40,006 nucleotides of DNA, taken from IMG/VR virus record IMGVR_UViG_3300007346_000006; one strand, given 5' to 3'. Shown here piece after piece: positions 11,895 to 32,475 of this stretch. The DNA is from a virus. The translations under genes and the position numbers were made by a program. The first letter of the stretch is position 1. The number at the start of each line of letters is the position of its first letter. The notes under the pieces are model-generated. The model did no database searches. It was not told where the DNA came from and saw only the letters and a program-made list of their open reading frames with translations.

Positions 11895-14800
11895 TTAGTC
11901 CTTTGCTTTCATAGTTCCTGCAAATACACGATAAAACATTGGAGCGAATGCTGGATTCTCTAACATTAAACTGTCAGCAAGTTCTTGTAGTTGTGAACGT
12001 AACTCGCTTGCATACCAGTGTGAACTGCCTAAATCAGGGTTTGCGGTTACGCGAGTTTCTTTTAGTAGTTCTATTGCTCTAGAATATTGTTCATAGAATT
12101 GTGCTGTTTCTTTGTATACAGGAGACATCTGAAATGCTTTATCCTGTAAAGCTTTAGCAACGTTAGCAATACGCTCATTGTCAGTACCAACATTAATAAT
12201 AGATGCTGGAGCAGCATCACCGAAACGCTTGTTAAGTTTGTTTATTTCACCTGCATACCAGACATCTGAGTATCCCATGGCAGCTTGCATCTCAGAAATC
12301 TGAGACTTAACCATCTTGTAAACAAGTTCTTCCGCAGCAGAAGATAGCTCTTCTGTGTTTAAAGGTTCACGACGTCCTGTTTTCTTTTGCCAAGCGTAGT
12401 ATGCTGTAGCACCTTCTCCACCAGGGAAAAAGAATGGAACGATATCACCGTTCTTAGTAGCATACTTTTCTGCTACATCAGGATGCATATTCAAAAATGT
12501 CCAAGCATCTTTAGTACCAGTAACAGTACGTGTAGAACCACCGAGAATAGCTAGCAGATTGCGCTCGCCAAACTCTGTTGAGAACTCATGAACTGCTGCA
12601 AAGTAATCACCAGGATGCTTACGGCTAATCTGATCCCATGCATTGTAAAGCATAGTCATGCTAGCAAAGTCAACCTTTTTGTTATTAGGAATCTTTGCAA
12701 ATATTTCTTGAGAAGGTGTAGCTGGTGATATGCTCTGGAATAAGGCTGTTAGTAATCCAATACCACGAGACATACCCTCGGCATCCTTAAACAACTGATT
12801 TCTTGCGGTGTCGTCCATTAAAGGATTTTCGCCATATTGACCAGTAGAAGCTAGGTATGATGCCCAGTCTTTTACTCCACGCTCAACTGTTTTTTGATCG
12901 TTAAGAAGATAATAAAATGTTTTACGCAACCAAGCTGGAGCAAGAGACCCTACAGGATCTGTTATTTCTCCGAATGGCATTACTACATCACGTATAGTAT
13001 TCCATACAGGTCCGAATGCTGATGACTTACCACTTGCCTGAAAGGCAAACTGTCCTACAGGACCAATACCGGGAACTCCTGGATTAACAGCACCAAAAAC
13101 TAAGTTAAGTGACTGTACAGGAGCTGTAAGTTGTAGTGCCTGAGCAGAATCTATATTTCTACCTACTAAGCCTCCGATAAAACTTCCAGCAATTGGGTAA
13201 CGGAAACGTTTTTCACCAAACTCATCTTCATAGATGAAGCCTTGTCCCTCGTCATACTTAACACCAGTTATGTCGTAAATAGCGCTTGAGCCTTCCTTTG
13301 TTAAGGAATTGTAAGCACGACCTAGTTTGTAAAAGTTTACTGGGTTAGAAACAAATAGTTGTCCCCATTTTTTAACGGTATTAAGGTGCGCCTGAATGAA
13401 TGGGAATATAAGACGCATAGCCTGAGCAGACTGTAACTGCTTAGATGCATCATAAAATAATTCTTTGGTGTACTTAGCGCCTTGCTTAGAAGCCATTGAG
13501 TTAAGGTTAGCTAGGGTTATTCCACCCTCATGGACGTAATCATCTCCACGTCTCTTTAGTTCCTTCTCAATAATCTTGATAGTTTGGTGCTTCTTGCCCC
13601 AAGCCTTGCCATTCTTACGAAGTGGTGCTAAAGTTTTTATGGCAGAATCTTGAAGTTTCAATAAGTCATCAGTATCTAGCATTGTAGCATAACGGCCTAC
13701 GTGGTCCCAATAAGCCATACGGAACTCAGGTCCAAAAGTAGATAAGTTTTCAAGTCTAGCATTTAGATCAAAGAACCAATCTACTGCTTTAGTAAGCATT
13801 TTAGGCTCACCATCCGCAAAACGCTTAGTGCGAGATAATAATACTGTGGATTCTGGCATGTCTTCTCGCTTGAAGAATGATGCTAACTGAGATTTGAAAC
13901 CAATCTCAAGATCATCCATCTCTACAACATTCTTGAGTTTAGCGTAATCTGGGATAGAAATCTCTGTTGTTTTGTTACCTTGAGTAACAGTTATTTTACC
14001 TTTAGCAAGGATCTCACGAATATACTCAGCCTTAGGTCCTTTACCACCAATAGACTGGATAGCGTATTCATAAGAACCAGTAGAGTTAATATCAAATAGA
14101 TATGTTCTTAAGTTATCTACGTTTATATTATCTTTTGAAAAAGGCTTGGTGATATCTTTTAATATGATTCTGTCAAAGTCAGATACTTTTACACCAGTTA
14201 CTTCTTTAGAAGTACGAGCACCACGATGTATCTTTTCTAATATCTCAAGACCTTGTTTTCTGGTGGTAAGATAACTAATCAAATCATCTTGTAGTTCAGG
14301 TGTACGAGCGCGTGCTACAAGTGGCATTAGATCATCTTTGTTGAAACGCATAAGTGTTAATGCAAGGCCCTTGTAATAGGACTCGTGATTATTATTAACT
14401 ACTTCGTATATCTTACCTACGAAAGCAGTGCGAGGATCACCAGCACTGATACCGCGTTTCATGAATTGCAGATATTCATCTAAAGCATCTGTTACAAGCT
14501 TCTCGGTTATATCATCTTTGAAGTTATTGCCAAATATGTCATTTTGAGCTTTGCCGATACGAGCGGCAAGTGCCTGCATCTTTGTACCCTTAGGGTTGGC
14601 CATGGCCATAGCTAAAAACTGAATTGGATGATTAAATATACTATCGTGTCCTGAGAAGAACATACGAAGTTGCATTTCACCAATATTGCGCATTGTGTAA
14701 GATACACGGAATGCTAGCTGAGCTGTACGCCAGTAGTCACCTAATTGGTTTGCTGTTGTGGTTACAGCTTTAGCCTTACCATACAACGGTACATTTTTGT

Positions 14801-17705
14801 TATAGGTATTGATAGCGTCAATAATAGGACGTGTATCTGGCAGACGAATAACATCATCTAGGAACTGGTGAGCGTAGTTAGCACCAGTCATAGCTAGTTC
14901 TTCACCATTGGTAAAAAGAAGTTTAGGGTCTGTTCCCTGAGCTAAGTTAGCAACATTATACTGACGTACAATAGCTTGCTCTTTACCAGCAAGTTTTAGA
15001 GCATCATCTAGGACTTTAGCTAATTCAGTATCACCTTTACCAACTGTAGTAACAAGGTGTTTTTGCATCTTACGCATGCCGTCCATAATGACTTTAGCAC
15101 GTGCTGTGTAATCTTTTTCACTGATAACTTTATTTATTACATCATCAATTAAATCTTGTGGTACTTTAGCTGTGGTAAACCAGTCATTTAGGCCACGTGA
15201 TAATCTATCCAAATCGTTCAAAGGCAGAATAGATGAACGTATGTATTGATTAGTTAGAACCTTTTCTGCTCTTTCAATAAACGATACAGCCTTCAAACCT
15301 ACAGGTTCAGCAAGCTTAATTAGTGGATTACTACTGTTTAGGGCTAGCTCAGTGCGTAGCAATAGGCTACGAGCAATCTGTGGATCACTCTCAGGAGAAG
15401 CTAAATGCCTCAGCATTACAGCAATAACGCCTTCTGCGGTGTTAGCCTTAGCTAGTTCATCAACAATTTCGACATCTAACTTGCGTCCGAATAGACGATC
15501 TAGACGCATTGTATTGGTCTCTTTAGCTACAATCTCTGCAACTGCAAGGAATCTTTTACCGAATAGATACCGCATGGCTTTGGTTGTATTTGCAGATAAT
15601 CCACCGAATAGTGAATCTGTCAGACCTACTTCACTAGAAAAGAACTCTCTAGCATAGCGAGTATCAGCAATTTTCATGTCTAAATCCATGACTTTAGCTA
15701 TCCCAATATTATCAGGATCATTCAACATCATTTTAAGCAAATCAGGATCTTTGGCTGCATAATCGCGTAAAGTTTCAATATCCTTTAAGCGTTGTGCCAT
15801 TCCTTCAGATTCTAACCTAGCATTATCAAGGGCTTGCTTACTACTTGATAGAGTATCTTCTGCTCTTTCGATAACACTATCTAACTTCAACATAGCGTTT
15901 GCAGCCATAGTTGGCTCTGCAGATTCAGCTAATACTTCGCTAATTTTAACCTTACGAGCAGCTACATTGTCTATATTAGTTAGAACTATGCCACCAGTAT
16001 CACCAAAGATTGAACGAATATTAGCAAATCCATCTACTTTGTAGATATCTGAAATCATATCCACGATAGTAGCCATCATTCGTTGGTCTACGCCACCTTC
16101 TTTAGCAGCAATAACTGAAATATCTTGTAACCATGTACCTAAAGGTTTAGCTACAGTATCTTCAAGCATAGAAATTGCGACAGAACTTACAGCTGTATTC
16201 TCAGTTCTTAGAGTATTAAAAGCTTCACGTGTAGGTGCTGGTAATGTACCGTCATCTGCTGCTTGTTTAATTCTTTTTAATAGTTCTGTACGACGCTTTA
16301 GTTCCTGTGACCAAGCTTTTTGTGATAAACTAGTCGTGTCATCAGATAAATCAAGTAACTTAGGAGCTTTGCCATAGTAAGAGGCAACAAATTCGTCATT
16401 ACCACGTGTCGCAAGTGCTATCGAGCCAGGTGCTTGTGGTAGTTCATCAAAAAATACTCCACCAGGAAAAGCTCCTGATGTATTATAGTAATCCGAAGAT
16501 AACTTAGATAGTGCATCAACAGTTTCTTTTTGCTTACCTGTGTTGATTCGTTCAAAAATGAACTCGCCAATGTTACGGTTATTGAGGGGCAAACCTCCTG
16601 GACCTGCAAGGTTGGCAGCATTCTTAGTATCAGCAGCATATACTTTAGCCGCAGCAATATAATCTGCTTCAATGCGTGCTTGTTGTGCCTTCTGATATAC
16701 CTGCTCAGCCTTGAGGTACTTGTTTTCCGCTTGACGAGTAACTTCCTTAGCAAGTCCGGAACGCTCTTTAATGAGCCTTCTTTCTTCCTTGGTAAGGCCA
16801 GCTGCCTCAGCTAAACGATTAGATTCTTTTTTCAGTTCTTCAGCAGCAGCAAGTTTAGCTTTCTTAAGTTCTTTTCCACCTTTACCAATTTTGGTAATAG
16901 CACCAGGGCCTAACCAAATTGTAGGGTCTAAAGCTACGTTAAGTGTGGCATCAATAATGCCTGACATAACTTTATACTGCGTACTATTAGGATCTGAGCC
17001 TACAGTTTTAAGTGCAGCACGTCCAAGAGTAAAAGATTTACCATTGATAAGTCCATAAGCACCCATAGCCTTGACTTGAGCCTTCTGTACTTTAGATTTC
17101 TCGTTAATAAAGAAACCAGAACCTGTATCTACTTTAGTAGGATTAGCTAAAAATGCCCGTCCCAGCTGACCAAGTTGTGTAGTTTCACCAACTAGTCCTA
17201 AAGGACTAAGGTTTTGTACAAATTGACTTAAATCTGGCTTGTCTTTTTGAGTTGCAAGTGCATAAGCATCACGTCCGACTGTGGTTACATACTCATAAGG
17301 CGAGCGAAGTGCAGCAAAAAGCGTACGACTTGTACCTTTGAATCCACCATATAACACATCTTTGATATCTGCTGCTAGTGATTTATCTTCATCTAGTGCA
17401 GACTTGATATTTTTAGTGTTAATTAAATCTTGTTTTAATTGTGCTAGTCCGTCAACTGAAGCAATCTTACCAATACCAGGTGTATCTGGCTTCAAACCAA
17501 GCTTTACTGCAGACATAATGAAGTCTTTACTCTGGTTTGGATAAGAATTTACCCATGCATCAAAGTTCTGAAATTGATTAGGCGAAAGCATAGCCATCTC
17601 AGTTGAAATAACGCGATCAAGTTGAGACTGGACATTATCGAATATTCCAGTAACTTTTATACGTTTATTCTTCTCAGGATTCCATGCATCTAAAGGATTA
17701 GCCAC
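11895..17705 (-). CDS. Giant protein of unknown function (1936 aa); presumed internal/ejected virion protein
   Basis: A single uninterrupted 5.8-kb ORF between the portal and scaffold genes. I recognised no catalytic motif confidently. Confidence 0.85.
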   Translation of the reverse strand: MANPLDAWNPEKNKRIKVTGIFDNVQSQLDRVISTEMAMLSPNQFQNFDAWVNSYPNQSKDFIMSAVKLGLKPDTPGIGKIASVDGLAQLKQDLINTKNIKSALDEDKSLAADIKDVLYGGFKGTSRTLFAALRSPYEYVTTVGRDAYALATQKDKPDLSQFVQNLSPLGLVGETTQLGQLGRAFLANPTKVDTGSGFFINEKSKVQKAQVKAMGAYGLINGKSFTLGRAALKTVGSDPNSTQYKVMSGIIDATLNVALDPTIWLGPGAITKIGKGGKELKKAKLAAAEELKKESNRLAEAAGLTKEERRLIKERSGLAKEVTRQAENKYLKAEQVYQKAQQARIEADYIAAAKVYAADTKNAANLAGPGGLPLNNRNIGEFIFERINTGKQKETVDALSKLSSDYYNTSGAFPGGVFFDELPQAPGSIALATRGNDEFVASYYGKAPKLLDLSDDTTSLSQKAWSQELKRRTELLKRIKQAADDGTLPAPTREAFNTLRTENTAVSSVAISMLEDTVAKPLGTWLQDISVIAAKEGGVDQRMMATIVDMISDIYKVDGFANIRSIFGDTGGIVLTNIDNVAARKVKISEVLAESAEPTMAANAMLKLDSVIERAEDTLSSSKQALDNARLESEGMAQRLKDIETLRDYAAKDPDLLKMMLNDPDNIGIAKVMDLDMKIADTRYAREFFSSEVGLTDSLFGGLSANTTKAMRYLFGKRFLAVAEIVAKETNTMRLDRLFGRKLDVEIVDELAKANTAEGVIAVMLRHLASPESDPQIARSLLLRTELALNSSNPLIKLAEPVGLKAVSFIERAEKVLTNQYIRSSILPLNDLDRLSRGLNDWFTTAKVPQDLIDDVINKVISEKDYTARAKVIMDGMRKMQKHLVTTVGKGDTELAKVLDDALKLAGKEQAIVRQYNVANLAQGTDPKLLFTNGEELAMTGANYAHQFLDDVIRLPDTRPIIDAINTYNKNVPLYGKAKAVTTTANQLGDYWRTAQLAFRVSYTMRNIGEMQLRMFFSGHDSIFNHPIQFLAMAMANPKGTKMQALAARIGKAQNDIFGNNFKDDITEKLVTDALDEYLQFMKRGISAGDPRTAFVGKIYEVVNNNHESYYKGLALTLMRFNKDDLMPLVARARTPELQDDLISYLTTRKQGLEILEKIHRGARTSKEVTGVKVSDFDRIILKDITKPFSKDNINVDNLRTYLFDINSTGSYEYAIQSIGGKGPKAEYIREILAKGKITVTQGNKTTEISIPDYAKLKNVVEMDDLEIGFKSQLASFFKREDMPESTVLLSRTKRFADGEPKMLTKAVDWFFDLNARLENLSTFGPEFRMAYWDHVGRYATMLDTDDLLKLQDSAIKTLAPLRKNGKAWGKKHQTIKIIEKELKRRGDDYVHEGGITLANLNSMASKQGAKYTKELFYDASKQLQSAQAMRLIFPFIQAHLNTVKKWGQLFVSNPVNFYKLGRAYNSLTKEGSSAIYDITGVKYDEGQGFIYEDEFGEKRFRYPIAGSFIGGLVGRNIDSAQALQLTAPVQSLNLVFGAVNPGVPGIGPVGQFAFQASGKSSAFGPVWNTIRDVVMPFGEITDPVGSLAPAWLRKTFYYLLNDQKTVERGVKDWASYLASTGQYGENPLMDDTARNQLFKDAEGMSRGIGLLTALFQSISPATPSQEIFAKIPNNKKVDFASMTMLYNAWDQISRKHPGDYFAAVHEFSTEFGERNLLAILGGSTRTVTGTKDAWTFLNMHPDVAEKYATKNGDIVPFFFPGGEGATAYYAWQKKTGRREPLNTEELSSAAEELVYKMVKSQISEMQAAMGYSDVWYAGEINKLNKRFGDAAPASIINVGTDNERIANVAKALQDKAFQMSPVYKETAQFYEQYSRAIELLKETRVTANPDLGSSHWYASELRSQLQELADSLMLENPAFAPMFYRVFAGTMKAKD

Positions 17706-22912: not shown

Positions 22913-23114
22913 CAACCCTAGAAATTAGCCTTCTGACCTGCGGTTTTCTCTCTCTCTTGATCCATTTTTTAACTTCTTTTCTTTGCTCTCTTTTAGGTGT
23001 TTTGGGTTTTTCGTTTTGTAGGTGGGTGAGTGGGTGCGTATGTGGGTGCGTGCGTATTGATCATTGAAAGTCGCCACGCGGATCCACGAGCGCACCAGCG
23101 CACGGGCAATTCAT

Positions 23115-23200
23115 ACACACACGCGGTATATTGCTTGCCGTCATACGAACGCACTTGTTTACACACACGCGGTACATACATTGTCGTCATACGCACGTGC
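23115..23200. repeat. Two imperfect direct repeats with 46-bp periodicity in the divergent intergenic region
   Basis: acacacacgcggta...gtcatacg(a/c)acg starts at 23115 and again at 23161. Confidence 0.75.
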
Positions 23201-23285: not shown

Positions 23286-23350
23286 GAAGGAAAATCCTTC
23301 ACCCGACAGGTTCGTAGGGTTTAATTCCATTTCCCTTCAAGCCTGTCGGG
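23286..23350 (+). promoter_or_regulatory. Structured 5' leader (two hairpins) abutting the first RBS of the operon
   Basis: gaagg-aaaat-ccttc (23286-23300). cccgacagg...cctgtcggg is a 9-bp perfect stem (23302-23310 / 23342-23350) with an inner aggg/ccct helix. Confidence 0.4.
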
Positions 23351-23369
23351 ATCACACGAAAGGAACATC

Positions 23370-23558
23370 ATGTATCTATCCGACCTCGACATTGTTGCTA
23401 TTTCCATAGCACTCGTGTCGTTAATGGCTCTCGTAATCACGAGTGCCGTTGCTAACGCAAGACTCACACGCCAGCGTGACGAGTGGCGTCGTGAAGCATT
23501 GAACCTTCAGCGAGTAATGGACTCGTTGTCGCCCATCACACGAAAGGAAAACGCATGA
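23370..23558 (+). CDS. Small single-pass membrane protein (62 aa)
   Basis: Hydrophobic IVAISIALVSLMALVITSAVA followed by a basic tail. ATGA overlap with the next gene. Confidence 0.7.
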   Translation: MYLSDLDIVAISIALVSLMALVITSAVANARLTRQRDEWRREALNLQRVMDSLSPITRKENA

Positions 23559-25129
23559 CCAACTCATATCCACCCGACCTACCCCCCGAAATACACTTCT
23601 CGTGGGGTGTCACAGGTGTCGGCGCATGTGCCAGATGCCGAGATATTCGCACGCTCATAGTTCACTCTGCTCTTCACACGGCAGATGAGTGTGAGCCATT
23701 ATGCTTAGAGTGCCTTCACTCGGCACTTACAACTTTCTGTTCAGACGCTCGCTCAAAGATGTGGGAGTTTGAACAAAACGGAGCGCGCATTGAAGATACT
23801 CCTGAGTATCAAGTGGCAAAGGCTACTTACGACACCTATTACGAGGTAATAGATGTGTTGATGAATAATCGCGCTCGTATCCAGCACACACGAGAGGAAG
23901 TCCTAGCACACGAACAAGGTTGTAAAGCCTGTGCGTGCTTCGGCTCTAACCTTGTTTTCGCTATATCGTATTATGACCACAGCATTACAGGTAGGGTTCA
24001 CGAGAACTGTGCTAGTCGTTGCTCTTGTTGTGATAAGAACTACTATCGTCCATTTTCGCGTGGAGTTGGCGGTTATTTCGAACTAAATCGCGTAATGAGG
24101 GAACGAGGCGCTCTTTCACGAATATGCCAAGAGTGTTTTGATGAACTTCGCATAGAGGACTCACACATGCTGTGTGACTGTGGCAATTGGGATACAGAGG
24201 AACGCATGTTTGAAGCGTGGGATAATCTCTACTGCCGAGGGTGTTCTTCCAATATAGATGACTGCGACTATTGCGGTGAACTACGCTGGACAGATGGCGA
24301 CCATACATGCGACGAAGAAAGTCGAGTTATCAAGAGTTATGACTTCGTGCCTAGCGGTGGCTTCGTGTTTCATGGTGATAGCCCACTTAATCACTATCTA
24401 GGGTTCGAACTCGAGGTCGAACTACCGAGCGGTGATAGCCTCAAGCCTATCGCTTCACAGACAAATGACTTAATCGGTGAGCGTGGTTTTCTCAAGTATG
24501 ACGGCTCGCTTGATAACGGCTTCGAGTTAGTCACCATGCCACACACACTTGAGGAATACATGAGCAAGTTCCCGTTCACGGCACTTGACGAACTCCGCGA
24601 GAGCGGTTTTCGCTCATGGGATACCGATACATGTGGCTTCCATATCCATGTATCACGAGCCACATTCGGTATGCGCTTGAAGGATACAAAACCTACACAG
24701 GGTCGCAAAGACGCACACATGCTCCGCTTTACGAAACTCATCTACGATAATCGTAGGCAAGTTAAGCGTATCGCAGGTAGAAGTTCCGATAGGTGGGCTT
24801 CGTTTGATGATGTAGGTCGTTTGACCGATAAAATCAAGACAGGTCATCAGGTAAATGGCAGATACTCCGCAGTAAATATCTCATCTAAGCGCACACTCGA
24901 GATCCGTGTGTTCAAGGGTTCTCTCAATGTGAGCCGAGTGAAGGCATACCTTCAGTTCGTTCACAGCACAGTCGAGTATACACGGGAGCTTCATGTAAGC
25001 CCTAATGATAACAACCTGATGTGGCGTAGATACACGGGTTGGCTTCACAAGAACGAACAGCAGTATCCCGAGTTGGTATCCCTACTCGGCAACCTACCCG
25101 AAAGACGCTCTGATGAAGGGGGCAACTAG
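23555..25129 (+). CDS. Amidoligase (carboxylate-amine ligase, phage 'Amidoligase_2'-type) with a ~260-aa Cys-rich N-terminal extension
   Basis: C-terminal half: SYDFVPSGGFVFHG...HYLGFELEVE...LKYDGSLDNGFELVTMPH...DTCGFHIHVSR. N-terminal half carries many CxxC/CxC pairs (CARCRD, CLECLH, CKACAC, CSCCD, CQECF, CDCG, CRGC, CDYCG). Confidence 0.75.
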   Translation: MTNSYPPDLPPEIHFSWGVTGVGACARCRDIRTLIVHSALHTADECEPLCLECLHSALTTFCSDARSKMWEFEQNGARIEDTPEYQVAKATYDTYYEVIDVLMNNRARIQHTREEVLAHEQGCKACACFGSNLVFAISYYDHSITGRVHENCASRCSCCDKNYYRPFSRGVGGYFELNRVMRERGALSRICQECFDELRIEDSHMLCDCGNWDTEERMFEAWDNLYCRGCSSNIDDCDYCGELRWTDGDHTCDEESRVIKSYDFVPSGGFVFHGDSPLNHYLGFELEVELPSGDSLKPIASQTNDLIGERGFLKYDGSLDNGFELVTMPHTLEEYMSKFPFTALDELRESGFRSWDTDTCGFHIHVSRATFGMRLKDTKPTQGRKDAHMLRFTKLIYDNRRQVKRIAGRSSDRWASFDDVGRLTDKIKTGHQVNGRYSAVNISSKRTLEIRVFKGSLNVSRVKAYLQFVHSTVEYTRELHVSPNDNNLMWRRYTGWLHKNEQQYPELVSLLGNLPERRSDEGGN

Positions 25130-25131
25130 TT

Positions 25132-26007
25132 ATGTGTATGTTATGTGTAATACCACCGAACACTATCCCATCACGGGATAAGTTAGAAAACTCTGCGCTC
25201 AACAACCCACATGGGTTCGGTTTCGCTATCGTTGTGCCTGAGGAAAATCGTATCATCTGCGAGCGTAGTATGAGCGCAGACGAAAGCATTAACCGCTTCC
25301 TTGAGTTGCGTGGTAAGTATCAGACGGGCTATGCCATGTGGCACGCTCGTATTGCTACGAGTGGCAAGATAGATATATCTAACTGCCACCCGTTCCTGCT
25401 ACCTGATAGCGAGCACCCAAACACTACCTATGTAGGACACAATGGTATGCTTGATGTCTACGAAGCCAAAGACGAAGTGCGTAGTGACACACGCATATTC
25501 GTAGAGGACTTAATTCCTGCTCTTGGTGGCGTGACCGCGCTCGATAACATTCAAATATTCACCATGCTTGACGAGTTCACACGCGGATCAAAGGTGTGTA
25601 TTCTTACAGTTCACCCAAAGGCTGAGTATCAGATGTATCTATTCCACGAGGAAGCAGGTCACACAGACGAGGACAAAGTGTGGTGGTCGAATAAGTCGTG
25701 CGAACTAGATACCAAAAGTCTTTACAACGGCTACTACGACTATGGCTACGCAGGAGCTTTCGTTAAAGACGGCAAGGAAGGCGTGGAAGCGTATTACAAC
25801 TGGTATGTATGCCAAACATGTAAGCACGAGTTCGACTGGGAAACCGAGTGTCCTGATGACTACTGCCCCAAGTGCCGAACCTGCCTTATGTGTGAGTCAA
25901 GCGAGGCGGTGTGCTTCTGCTATCGCCCTGAGAGCAAAAAGAAAACAGACTATGACCGACCTCATAGGTCATACTACGCACCTGAAGGGGGGTGGGCTAT
26001 ATCATGA
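25132..26007 (+). CDS. Class-II (Ntn, N-terminal Cys) glutamine amidotransferase-like protein with a C-terminal zinc ribbon
   Basis: MC at the N-terminus, HARIATSGKIDISNCHPF, VGHNGML (YafJ-type pattern). C-terminus: CQTCKHEF...CPDDYCPKCRTCLMCESSEAVCFC. Confidence 0.75.
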   Translation: MCMLCVIPPNTIPSRDKLENSALNNPHGFGFAIVVPEENRIICERSMSADESINRFLELRGKYQTGYAMWHARIATSGKIDISNCHPFLLPDSEHPNTTYVGHNGMLDVYEAKDEVRSDTRIFVEDLIPALGGVTALDNIQIFTMLDEFTRGSKVCILTVHPKAEYQMYLFHEEAGHTDEDKVWWSNKSCELDTKSLYNGYYDYGYAGAFVKDGKEGVEAYYNWYVCQTCKHEFDWETECPDDYCPKCRTCLMCESSEAVCFCYRPESKKKTDYDRPHRSYYAPEGGWAIS

Positions 26008-26207
26008 TAACCGAGAGCAAACTCATAACCGCGCTTATCAACGCTGGTTTAACTTATTCACCTGAAGCGGGTGACCCGTATCCAATGCGCCGAGTTCCGT
26101 GTGCTGATGTGGTGAAAGTTGTTTCACACTTTCTCATGGAAGCAGGTGTAGAGGTCAAGCAAGACCTTGAGCCAAAACACAGCGAGAAAGCGAAGTGGTC
26201 ACTATGA
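26004..26207 (+). CDS. Hypothetical protein (67 aa from the ATGA-coupled start; the track's longest ORF starts at 25992)
   Basis: The ATG at 26004 overlaps the upstream TGA. Confidence 0.6.
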   Translation: MITESKLITALINAGLTYSPEAGDPYPMRRVPCADVVKVVSHFLMEAGVEVKQDLEPKHSEKAKWSL

Positions 26208-26401
26208 CACGCACTTGGAAACCTGTTCCGCCCACGCCGTTCTACCTGAGCAAACGCGCAGAGTGGTTTCGGCGTGAGGCGGAGAAAGCACTTCTGCGTG
26301 GAGAAAAGACAAACGCACATCATCTCACTATGCGAGCGCAGGAATACTCTGCGCTTGCTGGTGAACTAGAACTAGGAGATACACATGCCCAAACAAGTTG
26401 A
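26204..26401 (+). CDS. Hypothetical protein (65 aa from the ATGA-coupled start; the track ORF starts at 26195)
   Basis: The ATG at 26204 overlaps the upstream TGA. Confidence 0.6.
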   Translation: MTRTWKPVPPTPFYLSKRAEWFRREAEKALLRGEKTNAHHLTMRAQEYSALAGELELGDTHAQTS

Positions 26402-26504
26402 GTGCTACAAGTGTGGCACACAGATACATGTGAGTAGTAATGATATCGCGGAGCGATACTATTGCTACCCGTGTGCTATGAGTAAGTTAGGAGCAACACC
26501 ATGA
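26385..26504 (+). CDS. 39-aa zinc-ribbon miniprotein (below the ORF-track cutoff)
   Basis: My translation gives MPKQVECYKCGTQIHVSSNDIAERYYCYPCAMSKLGATP. GGAG lies 7 nt upstream. The stop overlaps the next ATG (ATGA). Confidence 0.55.
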   Translation: MPKQVECYKCGTQIHVSSNDIAERYYCYPCAMSKLGATP

Positions 26505-26833
26505 GAACGAAAAAATACACATGGGAAAATCTCGTGTGGGAAGAAGTGGGTGATGGACTACTTGAGTGTAGTGTGTCGCTCTATCCTGCCGAATACTTAC
26601 GCATAGAGGAAGGGTGGTCTATTGATGGTCCGGCACGCGTGACTCTCAAGTGGACACCTAGTAAGAAACACACACGCGTAGTGGTCAAACCGCTACCTGC
26701 GAGTGAGTTCAACATAGACGACCCACAAGAGTATCCATGCGCTTCGTGTGGTGCTGCTAGAAAGTCGCCATGTGTAGGTGATGACACACGCTGTATGTAT
26801 CGTGTGTTCTCATTCTCGGGTGGTGAGTTATGA
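26501..26833 (+). CDS. Hypothetical protein (110 aa) with a C-terminal Cys cluster
   Basis: ORF coupled on both sides. Contains CASCGAARKSPCVGDDTRC. Confidence 0.7.
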   Translation: MRTKKYTWENLVWEEVGDGLLECSVSLYPAEYLRIEEGWSIDGPARVTLKWTPSKKHTRVVVKPLPASEFNIDDPQEYPCASCGAARKSPCVGDDTRCMYRVFSFSGGEL

Positions 26834-27156
26834 AACTCGACCTACCTGTGTTCTCGAAACACCCTTCGTGTGCTGATGCTCTCGAACCCGACATGTGGTT
26901 TCCTGAGGAAAAGAGCGGTAAGTCTGGGCGTGGTTGGTCACACACGCCTAGCGCCGAGCTTGCGCGTGACATTTGTAGAGGTTGCGAAGCCTTTACTGAG
27001 TGTAAGGAATACGCGCTACAATTCCAAGACCTTGCTGGCATTTGGGCAGACCAAGATCGCCACGAGCGTTATGAGGAACAGATAAAGCGTGGCATTACGC
27101 CACGCCCCGTATGGAATACGATAGTCACGCAGAGTAGGAGGTTGCTAGATGAGTAA
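26830..27156 (+). CDS. whiB: WhiB-family Fe-S transcription factor
   Basis: Four Cys in WhiB spacing (C...CRGCEAFTEC = C-X2-C-X5-C), followed by GIWADQ in place of the G(V/I)WGG turn and a basic C-terminus. Confidence 0.8.
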   Translation: MKLDLPVFSKHPSCADALEPDMWFPEEKSGKSGRGWSHTPSAELARDICRGCEAFTECKEYALQFQDLAGIWADQDRHERYEEQIKRGITPRPVWNTIVTQSRRLLDE

Positions 27157-27256
27157 TCACGAATACGAAAGTGTTAGTGAACAGGTAAGGTTTATCGTGT
27201 GGTTAAGCCTTGCTACACTCATAAGTGTAGGCGCGATTATCGGTCTAGCACTTTAA
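27149..27256 (+). CDS. 35-aa membrane miniprotein (below the ORF-track cutoff)
   Basis: My translation gives MSNHEYESVSEQVRFIVWLSLATLISVGAIIGLAL. GGAGG lies 8 nt upstream. It is the last ORF before the terminator. Confidence 0.5.
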   Translation: MSNHEYESVSEQVRFIVWLSLATLISVGAIIGLAL

Positions 27257-27268
27257 CTTCTACTCGGA

Positions 27269-27305
27269 AGCCCTACGCGTGTGTGGCGCGTGGGGCTTTT
27301 TTTTT
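27269..27305 (+). terminator. Rho-independent terminator closing the plus-strand operon
   Basis: agccctacgcg-tgtgtgg-cgcgtggggct followed by nine T. Confidence 0.85.
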
Positions 27306-29133: not shown

Positions 29134-29450
29134 CGCTTACCTTTTTTCTTTGTAGGGGGTTTTTTCTTTGCTCTACGCTTGTTTTCTTTAGCGACATTAT
29201 CACTCTTACGTACTGCCCGAAGATTCGACGGGCGATCATCTCCACTACGTCCACCATTGTTTTTATGATCCACTTCTATATTTCGTGGTAGTGTTTTTCC
29301 TGTTCGCTTTTCGTATTCAACTCTTGCTTTGTTACTTGAAGTAGTAACAACAGTTCCATCTTTTTTCTTACGCTTGAACACATAGATCTTCCTACCACCG
29401 TTTTGTTTACTACCTTTGTATGGTCCGAATATCTTCATTCTTGGGGCCAC
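29130..29450 (-). CDS. HNH endonuclease with a basic tail (106 aa)
   Basis: EVDHKNNGGRSGDDRPSNLRAV, plus a Lys-rich C-terminus. Confidence 0.7.
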   Translation of the reverse strand: MAPRMKIFGPYKGSKQNGGRKIYVFKRKKKDGTVVTTSSNKARVEYEKRTGKTLPRNIEVDHKNNGGRSGDDRPSNLRAVRKSDNVAKENKRRAKKKPPTKKKGKR

Positions 29451-29776
29451 TTTCCTCTCAGTACCATCATCGATATGATGGAATAGTTTGCTAAGTCCTT
29501 GAAAGAATCCTCAAGAGATTCATTCTCAGGACTACTGCCCGAATCTATTAGATGGTTGATACGAGCAATCTTGTCGTGCATACGAACGCGGAGCCCATTA
29601 AGAGCTCCGCCCGGTGAGTGAGAAATATTCTTTGGTCCGTAGTCCTTGTGCTTCTTGAGTAGAAGGGAAGCCAACTCATCAGCAATATCTAGAACATCAA
29701 ATTCAAAGTTATCTGTGTCATCTAATAACTTGTACGCTTTCTCAGTAAGAGTCCACACTTCAGCACTACTTGTCAT
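29435..29776 (-). CDS. MazG-like / DUF1599-like all-alpha NTP-pyrophosphohydrolase-fold protein
   Basis: KKHKDYGPKNI...GLRVRMHDKIARINHL...DSFKDLANYSII pattern recalled from that family; not verified by search. Confidence 0.5.
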   Translation of the reverse strand: MTSSAEVWTLTEKAYKLLDDTDNFEFDVLDIADELASLLLKKHKDYGPKNISHSPGGALNGLRVRMHDKIARINHLIDSGSSPENESLEDSFKDLANYSIISMMVLRGKWPQE

Positions 29777-31718: not shown

Positions 31719-31951
31719 CTTTCCTCCGTTGGAGCGGTTGCTTGTGTTCCACAGTCAGCACACTCCATATCTAAGAAATACATCCCTATCGTACCATCCT
31801 CATCGAATGTTACTTTAAGGTTCCATAAGAAACTACCACACACACATACCGTGGTTGGTTTACCACGTATATCCATCGCCCGAGTGTAGTCAGGACGTAA
31901 CTCGGTTATGTCTTTCACTTGCTCTGCGTAACTATTTGTATAGGTAGGCAA
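31715..31951 (-). CDS. Zinc-ribbon protein (78 aa from the TTG; 67 aa if it starts at the GTG at 31918, which overlaps the upstream TGA)
   Basis: CVCG...CADCG pairs. GTGA coupling with the HslV-like gene. Confidence 0.6.
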   Translation of the reverse strand: MPTYTNSYAEQVKDITELRPDYTRAMDIRGKPTTVCVCGSFLWNLKVTFDEDGTIGMYFLDMECADCGTQATAPTEER

Positions 31952-32475
31952 GTGTTGATGTCAAGCCTACAGGAGATAGCAAGGGCTTTCTTCGCTATCA
32001 AAGTAGCAGCTTGAACTGACTTGATCTTCTTTGTATCCACCGAGTGGAGATACCCAAGAGCGAACGAGCCACCAGAGCCAGCAGCATAATAACCTGACTC
32101 TGTACATAAGAAGGACATATCATCACCTATAGAAAACAATTTACCATTGAATCCTAATAAATATTGGAATGAAATTTCCTTCTTATCTTCCCCTTCTAAG
32201 TCAAAGCCATTAACCTTAAAGGCTTCAAGCATAGAGGGAATAATAGATTTACCCATGAATTGAATCTCATCACCTTGTTTGTAGACAGGTGGATTCCAGT
32301 TGTAAGTCAAGATATCTCCCGGACGAGCATCGCCTGAGATACCTAAAATATATTTACCAATGCGTATAATCTTGGGTGTCTTGGGAGAGATGATGCGCTG
32401 GTTATCTTCGGTTATTTGCGAATCGGCTGCCATGACTATAAAGTCTTTGCCTTGTATTCCGACTATTGTTGTCAC
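31915..32475 (-). CDS. HslV / proteasome beta-subunit-like Ntn (Thr1) peptidase
   Basis: GTG start, then TTIVGIQGKDFIVMAADSQIT...PKTPKIIRIGKYILGISGDARPGD...YAAGSGGSFALGYL...AKKALAISCRLDINT, colinear with E. coli HslV (MTTIVSVRR...GDGQAT...KKVRRL...GFAGGTADA...AIGSGG...AEKALDIAGDI). GGGAG lies 7 nt upstream. Confidence 0.8.
   Translation of the reverse strand: MTTIVGIQGKDFIVMAADSQITEDNQRIISPKTPKIIRIGKYILGISGDARPGDILTYNWNPPVYKQGDEIQFMGKSIIPSMLEAFKVNGFDLEGEDKKEISFQYLLGFNGKLFSIGDDMSFLCTESGYYAAGSGGSFALGYLHSVDTKKIKSVQAATLIAKKALAISCRLDINTCLPIQIVTQSK

Follow-up and report, generated by a model that had tools for sequence, protein, structure and literature searches.

A linked Amidoligase_2-type ligase and Ntn amidotransferase-fold enzyme in a phage genome: a candidate split amidoligase

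The enzyme pair at 23555-26007

The IMG/VR virus record IMGVR_UViG_3300007346_000006 (40,006 nucleotides (nt); this whole stretch is referred to as the window and all coordinates are given on it) carries two adjacent genes, open reading frames (ORFs) 1 and 2. They encode a carboxylate-amine ligase fused to a Zn-rich N-terminal module, and a class-II glutamine amidotransferase-fold enzyme of the N-terminal nucleophile (Ntn) type. A preliminary description of the window, made from the sequence alone, had placed the two ORFs at 23555..25129 and 25132..26007, where they were found exactly so, and all motifs quoted there were located in the two translations. The gap between the genes is 2 nt (junction TAG-tt-ATG) and a purine-rich, Shine-Dalgarno-like run, GAAGGGGG, lies within the 3' end of ORF1, which together make ORF1 and ORF2 translationally adjacent. 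The two genes and their parts are as follows (aa, amino acids; GS, glutamine synthetase):

23555..25129, + strand: ORF1, 524 aa; Amidoligase_2 / GS-fold carboxylate-amine ligase that carries a Zn-rich module at its N-terminus
23555..24340, + strand: ORF1 residues 1-262; acidic module predicted to bind Zn at about five Cys4/Cys3His sites
24341..25126, + strand: ORF1 residues 263-524; ligase catalytic domain and acidic disordered tail with a terminal Asn
25132..26007, + strand: ORF2, 291 aa; enzyme of the class-II (Ntn, Cys1) glutamine-amidotransferase fold, extended at its C-terminus by a Zn ribbon and a GGW tail
25132..25701, + strand: ORF2 residues 1-190; Ntn glutaminase-type core
25798..25920, + strand: ORF2 residues 223-263; Cys cluster with ligands sufficient for two Zn sites
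25921..26004, + strand: ORF2 residues 264-291; disordered tail ending ...EGGWAIS

The C-terminal half of ORF1 scored 27.1 bits against Pfam Amidoligase_2 (PF12224, cut-off 22) over residues 322-470, and the same model matched all 33 aligned members of the ORF1 family (best E 1.7e-10). In PHROGs, phrog_16683 (E 3e-32), phrog_22302, and phrog_2443 ('amidoligase enzyme', E 2.6e-10) were recovered. An AlphaFold2 (AF2) model built on the 33-sequence alignment reached a mean predicted local distance difference test score (pLDDT) of 85.6, and its Foldseek matches in the PDB included YbdK/GCS2 (1tt4, E 2e-5), GmaS (gamma-glutamylmethylamide synthetase, 9qur), PafA (4bjr), Dop, and GS. Viral models (BFVD) searched in the same way returned dozens of phage 'amidoligase enzyme' entries, down to E 1e-25, together with amidoligase homologues in giant viruses; one viral model of the same architecture carries the name 'LIM domain containing protein'. 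Pfam, PHROGs, and the predicted structure with its Foldseek matches thus uphold the earlier assignment of this half to Amidoligase_2, and the catalytic domain, as modelled, has a GS-like carboxylate-amine ligase fold. It contains the motifs GFELEVE (283-289), YDGSLDNGFELVTMP (315-329), and CGFHIHV (360-366). Across 33 homologues (34-74% identity), E285/E287/E289 of GFELEVE, K314, D316-G-S318, G322-F-E324, C360-G-x-H363-x-H365, R368, and E449-x-R451 are invariant, so that acidic, His, and Arg residues of the ligase are all conserved; by analogy with GS-fold enzymes, these positions may act as metal or ATP ligands.

The N-terminal module (residues 1-262) holds 22 Cys, with seven strict CxxC pairs (at 25, 50, 123, 156, 191, 227, and 237) besides a CxC (207/209), an HxxC (149/152), and an HxC (250/252), a count that corrects the 'at least 8' CxxC pairs reported before. 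Twenty Cys/His ligands between residues 25 and 252 are invariant or at least 90% conserved in the same homologues, which is far beyond chance, and their order along the chain suggests a pairing into five tetrahedral Zn sites (C25/C28/C50/C53; C123/C126/H149/C152; C156/C159/C191/C194; C207/C209/C227/C230; C237/C240/H250/C252). The module is strongly acidic (isoelectric point (pI) 4.9 and charge -17.8; family medians pI 4.55 and charge about -23), which disfavours nucleic-acid binding and favours a basic protein or cationic ligand as its partner. When residues 1-262 alone were searched against 1.8e9 representatives, matches fell in the ORF1 ligase family only; a portable targeting domain is therefore unsupported, as the module was seen in no other architecture. 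Membership in the LIM, PHD, or CW families was considered and rejected for too weak a similarity (a LIM match in 1 of the 33 members at E 0.039, the CRP2 LIM domain at E 0.006 with the family profile, and a PHD-like match at E 0.07).

The Cys-rich decoration had been regarded as a special feature of this pair, but it is family-wide. Cys-rich N-termini also occur in gp105 of mycobacteriophage Marvin, in podovirus ctgrD200, and in the ligases of Clostridial mobile elements. The Clostridial versions contain 12-17 Cys within their first 120 aa and end in an acidic C-terminal tail, and in 66 of 67 cases their partner begins MC.... A Zn-decorated ligase with an Ntn partner is therefore the standard design of the family, and only an extra ~190 aa of the ORF1 N-terminus is specific to its clade.

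ORF2 scored 26.7 bits against Pfam GATase_4 (cut-off 23) and matched phrog_25883 (E 4e-30). The pLDDT of its AF2 model exceeds 90 over residues 1-190, and the Foldseek matches comprised the glutaminase domain of GlmS (1xff/3ooj, E 4e-7), PA1307, EgtC, and PurF, all with probability 1.00. These results agree with the family of N-terminal-Cys class-II amidotransferases to which ORF2 had been attributed, and its core is predicted to have the four-layer alpha-beta-beta-alpha Ntn fold. The protein starts with MC and carries HARIATSG (71-78), NCHPF (84-88), HNG (103-105), and S118-D119-T120. The putative nucleophile C2 is invariant in 30 close homologues and in the cross-lineage alignment, and present in 66 of 67 distant partners; R73, T76, N84, H86-P87, H103-N104-G105, and D119-T120 are likewise invariant among homologues, and the glutamine-site positions stay the same in the Marvin, OM43-phage, ctgrD200, Bacteroidetes, and Clostridial versions. 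With hhalign, H71/R73/T76/G78, N84/H86/P87, and H103-N104-G105 of ORF2 fell onto H71/R73/T76/G78/N84/H86/P87/H97-N98-G99 of GlmS, the sequence of which was entered by hand, and HMMER searches against PDB sequences aligned the same motif stretch to PurF and GFAT. In GlmS, R73, T76, N98-G99, and D123 are the glutamine-binding and oxyanion residues, D123 contacting the amino group of glutamine; D119 of ORF2 is probably the counterpart of D123, judged by its motif and its position on a predicted helix, in a region where the MAFFT alignment is ambiguous.

Beyond the core, the multi-Cys ribbon described earlier at the end of ORF2 is confirmed as a cluster of seven Cys that are invariant in the 30 close homologues (C227, C230, C245, C248, C251, C254, and C263, with C261 also lying within), modelled at a pLDDT of about 75. 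The cluster is present in Marvin gp106 and missing in MEP402 gp07 and in the ctgrD200 partner. Both enzymes end in disordered tails (pLDDT < 50 for ORF1 residues 519-524 and for the ORF2 tail), the composition of which was counted in homologues P0001-P0240. In the ligase family, whose tail is acidic (25082-25126 in the window), 96 of 120 homologues terminate in Asn and 68 of 120 in 'EN', and 105 of 120 members of the GATase family have GGW among their final 8 residues. Such conserved tails could be docking or self-substrate motifs.

Linkage, distribution, and genomic setting

The ligase gene was followed directly by the GATase-like gene in all five metagenome contigs, and the pair was intact in every one of the 75 IMG/VR loci that extended far enough downstream (four exceptions in a strict count were due solely to longer start calls by the ORF finder and were counted as linked). 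In cellular genomes, about 65 of 80 loci had the two genes linked. They are also adjacent in Marvin-like cluster S mycobacteriophages (gp105-gp106), in the Methylophilales phage MEP402 (gp06-gp07), and in ctgrD200. The neighbourhoods surveyed thus show a strictly two-gene module with near-absolute linkage, in line with the association proposed in the preliminary description. In IMG/VR, 314 relatives belong to the ORF1 clade alone; a near-identity DNA search against deposited phages gave no match. The Marvin gp105 gene and its cluster S homologues are annotated as 'glutamine amidotransferase domain protein', although gp105 is actually the amidoligase and only gp106 is GATase-like (contig L001, 5893-7254).

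Most cellular copies belong to Oscillospiraceae and other Clostridia, often with several per genome, and they are located on mobile elements, being flanked by DUF3846, DUF960, D5 primase-helicase, resolvase, and IS110 transposase genes. The pair is thus a cargo of integrative mobile elements in gut Clostridia. In Agathobaculum, Butyricicoccus, and Pseudoflavonifractor (L093-L100, L117, and others), multiple pairs of a 360-420-aa Cys-rich amidoligase and an MC... protein were observed.

The window is an almost complete phage genome of ~40 kb, with genes for a terminase, portal, primase, DnaB-like helicase, Cas4-like nuclease, RusA, metallophosphoesterase, and sigma-like factor. Its sole + strand operon (23370-27256) contains the pair and a WhiB gene and has strong terminators on its borders, the rest being encoded on the minus strand. 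The terminase is 57% identical to that of LanE43-AprF5 (F5, OX376641), which is among the first cultured phages of 'Ca. Planktophila' (acI/Nanopelagicales), and 45% identical to those of Streptomyces podophages. The phage setting proposed at the outset is borne out and the host is probably actinobacterial; given the terminase relationship and WhiB, it is most likely a freshwater acI actinobacterium. In F5 (L168, 2800-7200) the equivalent + strand early operon has a WhiB-like gene and other small genes in place of the pair. The pair is therefore accessory, as this cultured relative has neither enzyme in the equivalent operon. The remaining parts of the operon in the window are:

23370..23558, + strand: membrane protein of 62 aa with a single pass, lineage-specific, with which the + strand operon opens
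25992..27256, + strand: downstream operon genes of 71, 68, 39 (CxxC...CxxC ribbon), 110, 108 (WhiB), and 35 (membrane) aa; lineage-specific neighbours
27266..27300, + strand: intrinsic terminator, a 15-bp stem followed by a T-run, which closes the + strand operon

Genes for the 62-aa, 68-aa, 39-aa Zn-ribbon, WhiB, and 35-aa membrane proteins are syntenic in 47-60 of 80 clade loci; the 62-aa membrane protein is kept in 60 of 80 and the downstream operon genes in 11-57 of 80. Outside the clade, iterative searches found the small neighbours beside the pair in only two or three contigs, probably the same phage type within metagenome-assembled genomes (MAGs), the 62-aa membrane protein in only two likely phage contigs, and WhiB (Pfam E 9.7e-10) together with the pair in just two likely phage contigs. 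No consistent third gene was seen in the Clostridial loci (DUF960 in 14, DUF3846 in 4, the others diverse). The preliminary description had suggested a multi-component system including the membrane and zinc-ribbon miniproteins; as these are conserved within one phage lineage only, they were rejected as components and a larger system is unsupported.

Contigs L089 and L090, from a Candidatus Saccharimonadales MAG, hold the pair, WhiB, and a homologue of the 62-aa ORF, and are probably mis-binned actinophage contigs. The 62-aa membrane protein itself has SLATT-like matches that are both sub-threshold (Pfam SLATT_5 E 0.065; PADLOC RTasSLATT E 0.0023). PADLOC found no defence-system match, and no Rfam family or tRNA was detected in the window. 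Upstream of the operon, the intergenic region holds two tandem 38-nt direct repeats (23114-23197) that share 84% identity at a spacing of 46 nt and may represent a promoter or operator element in duplicate; a scan for sigma-70 promoters, which scored no better than its shuffled control, did not flag them. An identical 15-nt sequence, ATCACACGAAAGGAA, precedes the start codons of the 62-aa ORF (23351-23365) and of ORF1 (23535-23549). Just upstream of its first copy lies an inverted repeat with 18-nt arms (hairpin 23302-23350), likely within the 5' untranslated region.

Elsewhere in the window, a DUF1599 ('nucleotide modification associated domain 1') gene lies in the replication module on the minus strand (29435-29776) and is also found in F5. 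A 186-aa proteasome-beta / HslV-like Ntn hydrolase is encoded at 31915-32475 (minus strand; Pfam Proteasome E 1.9e-11). It aligns over its full length to the beta subunit 6z46_H (E 6.6e-5) and starts MTT..., so that a Thr1 nucleophile is expected; its gene is present in the related contig L006 and missing from the pair-bearing contig L004. Beside the structural genes, a 1936-aa ORF lacking a Pfam match (11895-17705, minus strand) recurs at ~1930-1941 aa in all related contigs.

Proposed reaction and competing explanations

We tentatively read the pair as a split glutamine-dependent amidoligase whose host target would be modified during pre-replicative takeover. It would be a self-contained, obligately paired module, carried as accessory cargo by phages and mobile elements and expressed before the structural genes. 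ORF2, the Cys2 enzyme, would bind glutamine or a gamma-glutamyl group, hydrolyse the amide, and release ammonia, and ORF1 would activate a carboxylate as an acyl-phosphate with ATP and join it to an amine. With the ammonia derived from ORF2, ORF1 would amidate a carboxylate, probably of the Glu type, on the host target (overall, X-COOH + Gln + ATP -> X-CONH2 + Glu + ADP + Pi). The acidic Zn-finger module of ORF1 may serve in target recognition or assembly, probably towards a basic protein or ligand and not nucleic acid, and the pair could act in pre-replicative host takeover, counter-defence, or exclusion. The nucleophile of GS is free ammonia, and the obligate pairing counts for a split amidotransferase, because it is typical of heteromeric amidotransferases. 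The reading builds further on the predicted folds with their conserved catalytic residues, on an Ntn partner that keeps a complete glutamine/gamma-glutamyl site, on the accessory status and pre-structural position of the pair (including the middle transcription class of the homologous PaP3 region) and, for target recognition, on an acidic Zn module seen in no other architecture. Several points weigh on the other side. A complex, ammonia transfer through a tunnel, the nature of the substrate, and the biological role are inferred, and no ligase-GATase fusion was seen among the homologues listed. The mapping of GS-fold residues onto ORF1 follows from fold similarity, not from a residue-level alignment, and the sequence search with ORF1 recovered no GS-family chain. 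Both Pfam scores barely exceed their thresholds (27.1 vs 22 for ORF1 and 26.7 vs 23 for ORF2), and the glutamine-binding residues fit a gamma-glutamyl-amide hydrolase such as EgtC, a structural match of ORF2, equally well.

This last point leads to the main rival, an alternative that we consider unlikely on the whole, though worth serious attention, in which the two enzymes make and break a gamma-glutamyl bond in sequence: the ligase would gamma-glutamylate an amine (a polyamine, metabolite, or protein lysine) and the Ntn enzyme would later hydrolyse the gamma-glutamyl amide, as in PuuA/PuuD, IpuC/IpuF, and the EgtA/EgtC steps of ergothioneine synthesis. The characterised GS-fold enzymes among the structural matches (GS, GmaS, YbdK/GCS2, and PafA) all activate a glutamate gamma-carboxylate (in part established knowledge), EgtC is a stand-alone gamma-glutamyl hydrolase of the ORF2 fold and a strong structural match, the top Pfam model of ORF2, GATase_4, is of the stand-alone YafJ type, and R73 and D119 would hold any gamma-glutamyl donor by its free alpha-carboxylate and alpha-amino group. 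Since EgtC-type hydrolases share every conserved residue, sequence is unable to separate such a pair from a split amidoligase; what speaks against it is that pathway pairs are usually less strictly adjacent and translationally coupled across phyla, that no intermediate third enzyme is linked to the pair, and that a cycle of the two enzymes alone would be futile. More speculatively, and with less weight than make-and-break chemistry, the pair could be a general 'establishment' weapon of invading DNA, carried by phages of Actinobacteria, Proteobacteria, and archaea and by Clostridial mobile elements, in which the acidic, DNA-mimic-like Zn module captures a basic protein of the host (from the nucleoid, the ribosome, or a restriction or defence system, for instance), the ligase covalently inactivates it by amidating or peptide-tagging a carboxylate, and the Ntn partner supplies nitrogen or processes the tag. 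A system resembling pupylation seems improbable to us. Here the PafA/Dop-fold ligase would attach a peptide or protein carboxylate to host lysines and the Ntn enzyme would deamidate or process it, possibly in connection with the proteasome-beta-like gene of the phage. The idea draws on PafA and Dop among the top structural matches of ORF1, a probably actinobacterial host, a phage proteasome-beta homologue that starts MTT..., the acidic LIM-like Zn module, which suggests protein-protein recognition, and the conserved disordered tails of both enzymes. It is opposed by the PafA/Dop similarity being at the level of the fold with no sequence match, and by the lack of a Pup-like ORF with a conserved GGQ or GGE end (the 110-aa ORF with its 'GGEL' end was rejected as a candidate, as it ends GG-x-L with a variable x). 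Moreover, the pair is frequent where pupylation is missing (in Pseudomonas, OM43, Clostridia, and an archaeal virus), and the proteasome-like gene is missing from related pair-bearing contigs, e.g., L004.

Amidation of peptidoglycan precursors in the manner of MurT/GatD or LtsA, with a change of the wall that excludes superinfecting phages, appears to us still less plausible than tagging of lysines. It has been suggested in the literature for phiEco32-type systems, and later papers ascribe the idea to Iyer et al. 2009. Glutamine- and ATP-dependent amidation of D-isoglutamate or meso-diaminopimelate is established chemistry, and small membrane proteins flank the pair in its operon. Against it, these miniproteins are lineage-specific, neither enzyme resembles the Mur ligases or the class-I GatD, and the acidic Zn module would have no obvious role; the pair is also carried by a virus whose assigned hosts, Poseidoniales archaea, have no peptidoglycan, and giant viruses have amidoligase homologues. 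Slightly more doubtful again is a step in hypermodification of phage DNA or nucleotides, e.g., one in which a modified base is amidated or glutamylated. Lee et al. 2021 reported that metagenomic thymidine-hypermodification clusters contain Pfam hits to amidoligases and amidotransferases, and the genome has the DUF1599 gene at 29435-29776. This gene is independent of the pair, however, because F5 retains DUF1599 and has no pair; 5-HMUDK, aGPT-Pplase, dUMP hydroxymethylase, and TET/JBP were not found among the window genes scanned (some small ORFs lay outside the scan), a strongly acidic Zn module is unlikely to bind DNA, and the Clostridial mobile-element copies have no DNA-modification neighbours. 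Least credible of all is an auxiliary metabolic gene (AMG) pair that boosts host nitrogen, glutamine, or glutathione-type metabolism. The chemistry does involve glutamine and the pair is labelled as AMGs in several genome papers, but these published claims are annotations or indirect growth effects and not enzymology. Neither protein closely copies a metabolic enzyme of the host, their cellular relatives sit on mobile elements, NCBIfam gave no equivalog for either ORF1 or ORF2, and a five-site Zn recognition module with conserved tails would be unexpected in a housekeeping-type enzyme.

The pair is one of the more widespread uncharacterised enzyme modules of phages, occurring in mycobacteriophages, in phages of Pseudomonas and OM43, in an archaeal virus, and on mobile elements of Clostridia. 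If the target proved to be a host protein or a defence component, the pair would represent a new enzymatic takeover mechanism, and if it proved to be a metabolite, the loose 'AMG' labels in circulation would be corrected; capture and inactivation of a basic host protein, if true, would constitute a new class of enzymatic protein modification in anti-defence or host takeover. Tractable systems are Marvin gp105-gp106 in M. smegmatis and LUZ24/PaP3 in Pseudomonas; among the 'Ca. Planktophila' phages, presence and absence of the pair form a natural contrast (F5 being without it).

Relation to known systems

The pairing of Amidoligase and GATase genes in phages is credited by later papers to Iyer, Abhiman, Burroughs & Aravind 2009, and descriptive mentions of it exist for LUZ24-like phages, phage tf, OM43 phages, Marvin, a Planctomycetes phage, and a Poseidoniales virus. 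The pairing has thus been known since 2009; the window adds a further instance, and the Cys-rich decoration is not new to this genome. The literature searched yielded no experimental determination of the substrate or role of the pair, which agrees with its having been called uncharacterised. In PaP3, ORFs 22-56 form the middle transcription class, a range that covers the region in which the UFV-P2 table puts the homologues.

The pairs of phiEco32, LUZ24/PaP3/tf/UFV-P2, Marvin (gp105-gp106), and MEP401/402 share with the window pair their families, the order of ligase then GATase, and a non-structural early/middle position. Marvin gp105 and ctgrD200 resemble ORF1 further in having a Cys-rich segment directly before the ligase domain. 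Compared with these known phage pairs, the window clade has an extra ~190 aa at the N-terminus, bringing the predicted total to about five Zn sites, and a GATase partner with a two-site Cys ribbon and a GGW tail. LUZ24-like phages carry ATP-grasp and COOH-NH2_lig (PF14395) genes beside the pair; both are absent here, which makes the window pair a minimal two-gene version.

Among the cellular enzymes, MurT/GatD, asparagine synthetase B (AsnB), LtsA, and NAD synthetase follow the same proposed logic, in which a glutaminase feeds ammonia to an ATP-dependent activator of a carboxylate, and the class-II Ntn glutaminase fold of ORF2 recurs in AsnB and LtsA. In contrast to these amidotransferases, ORF1 has a predicted GS fold, for which an acyl-phosphate is expected, instead of a Mur ligase or an adenylating PP-loop, and the coupling to ORF2 is a proposal only. 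PafA/Dop, YbdK/GCS2, GS, and GmaS share the catalytic fold of ORF1, and their chemistry is ATP-dependent and runs through gamma-glutamyl-phosphate; ORF1 differs from them in its lack of detectable sequence similarity, its N-terminal module, and its partner, and no Pup-like gene accompanies it. Finally, EgtC, YafJ, PA1307, and the GlmS/PurF glutaminase domains have the ORF2 fold, the N-terminal Cys, and the R73/T76/N-G motifs in common with ORF2, whereas ORF2 adds a C-terminal extension of ~100 aa (the Zn ribbon and GGW) and always stands beside a GS-fold ligase.

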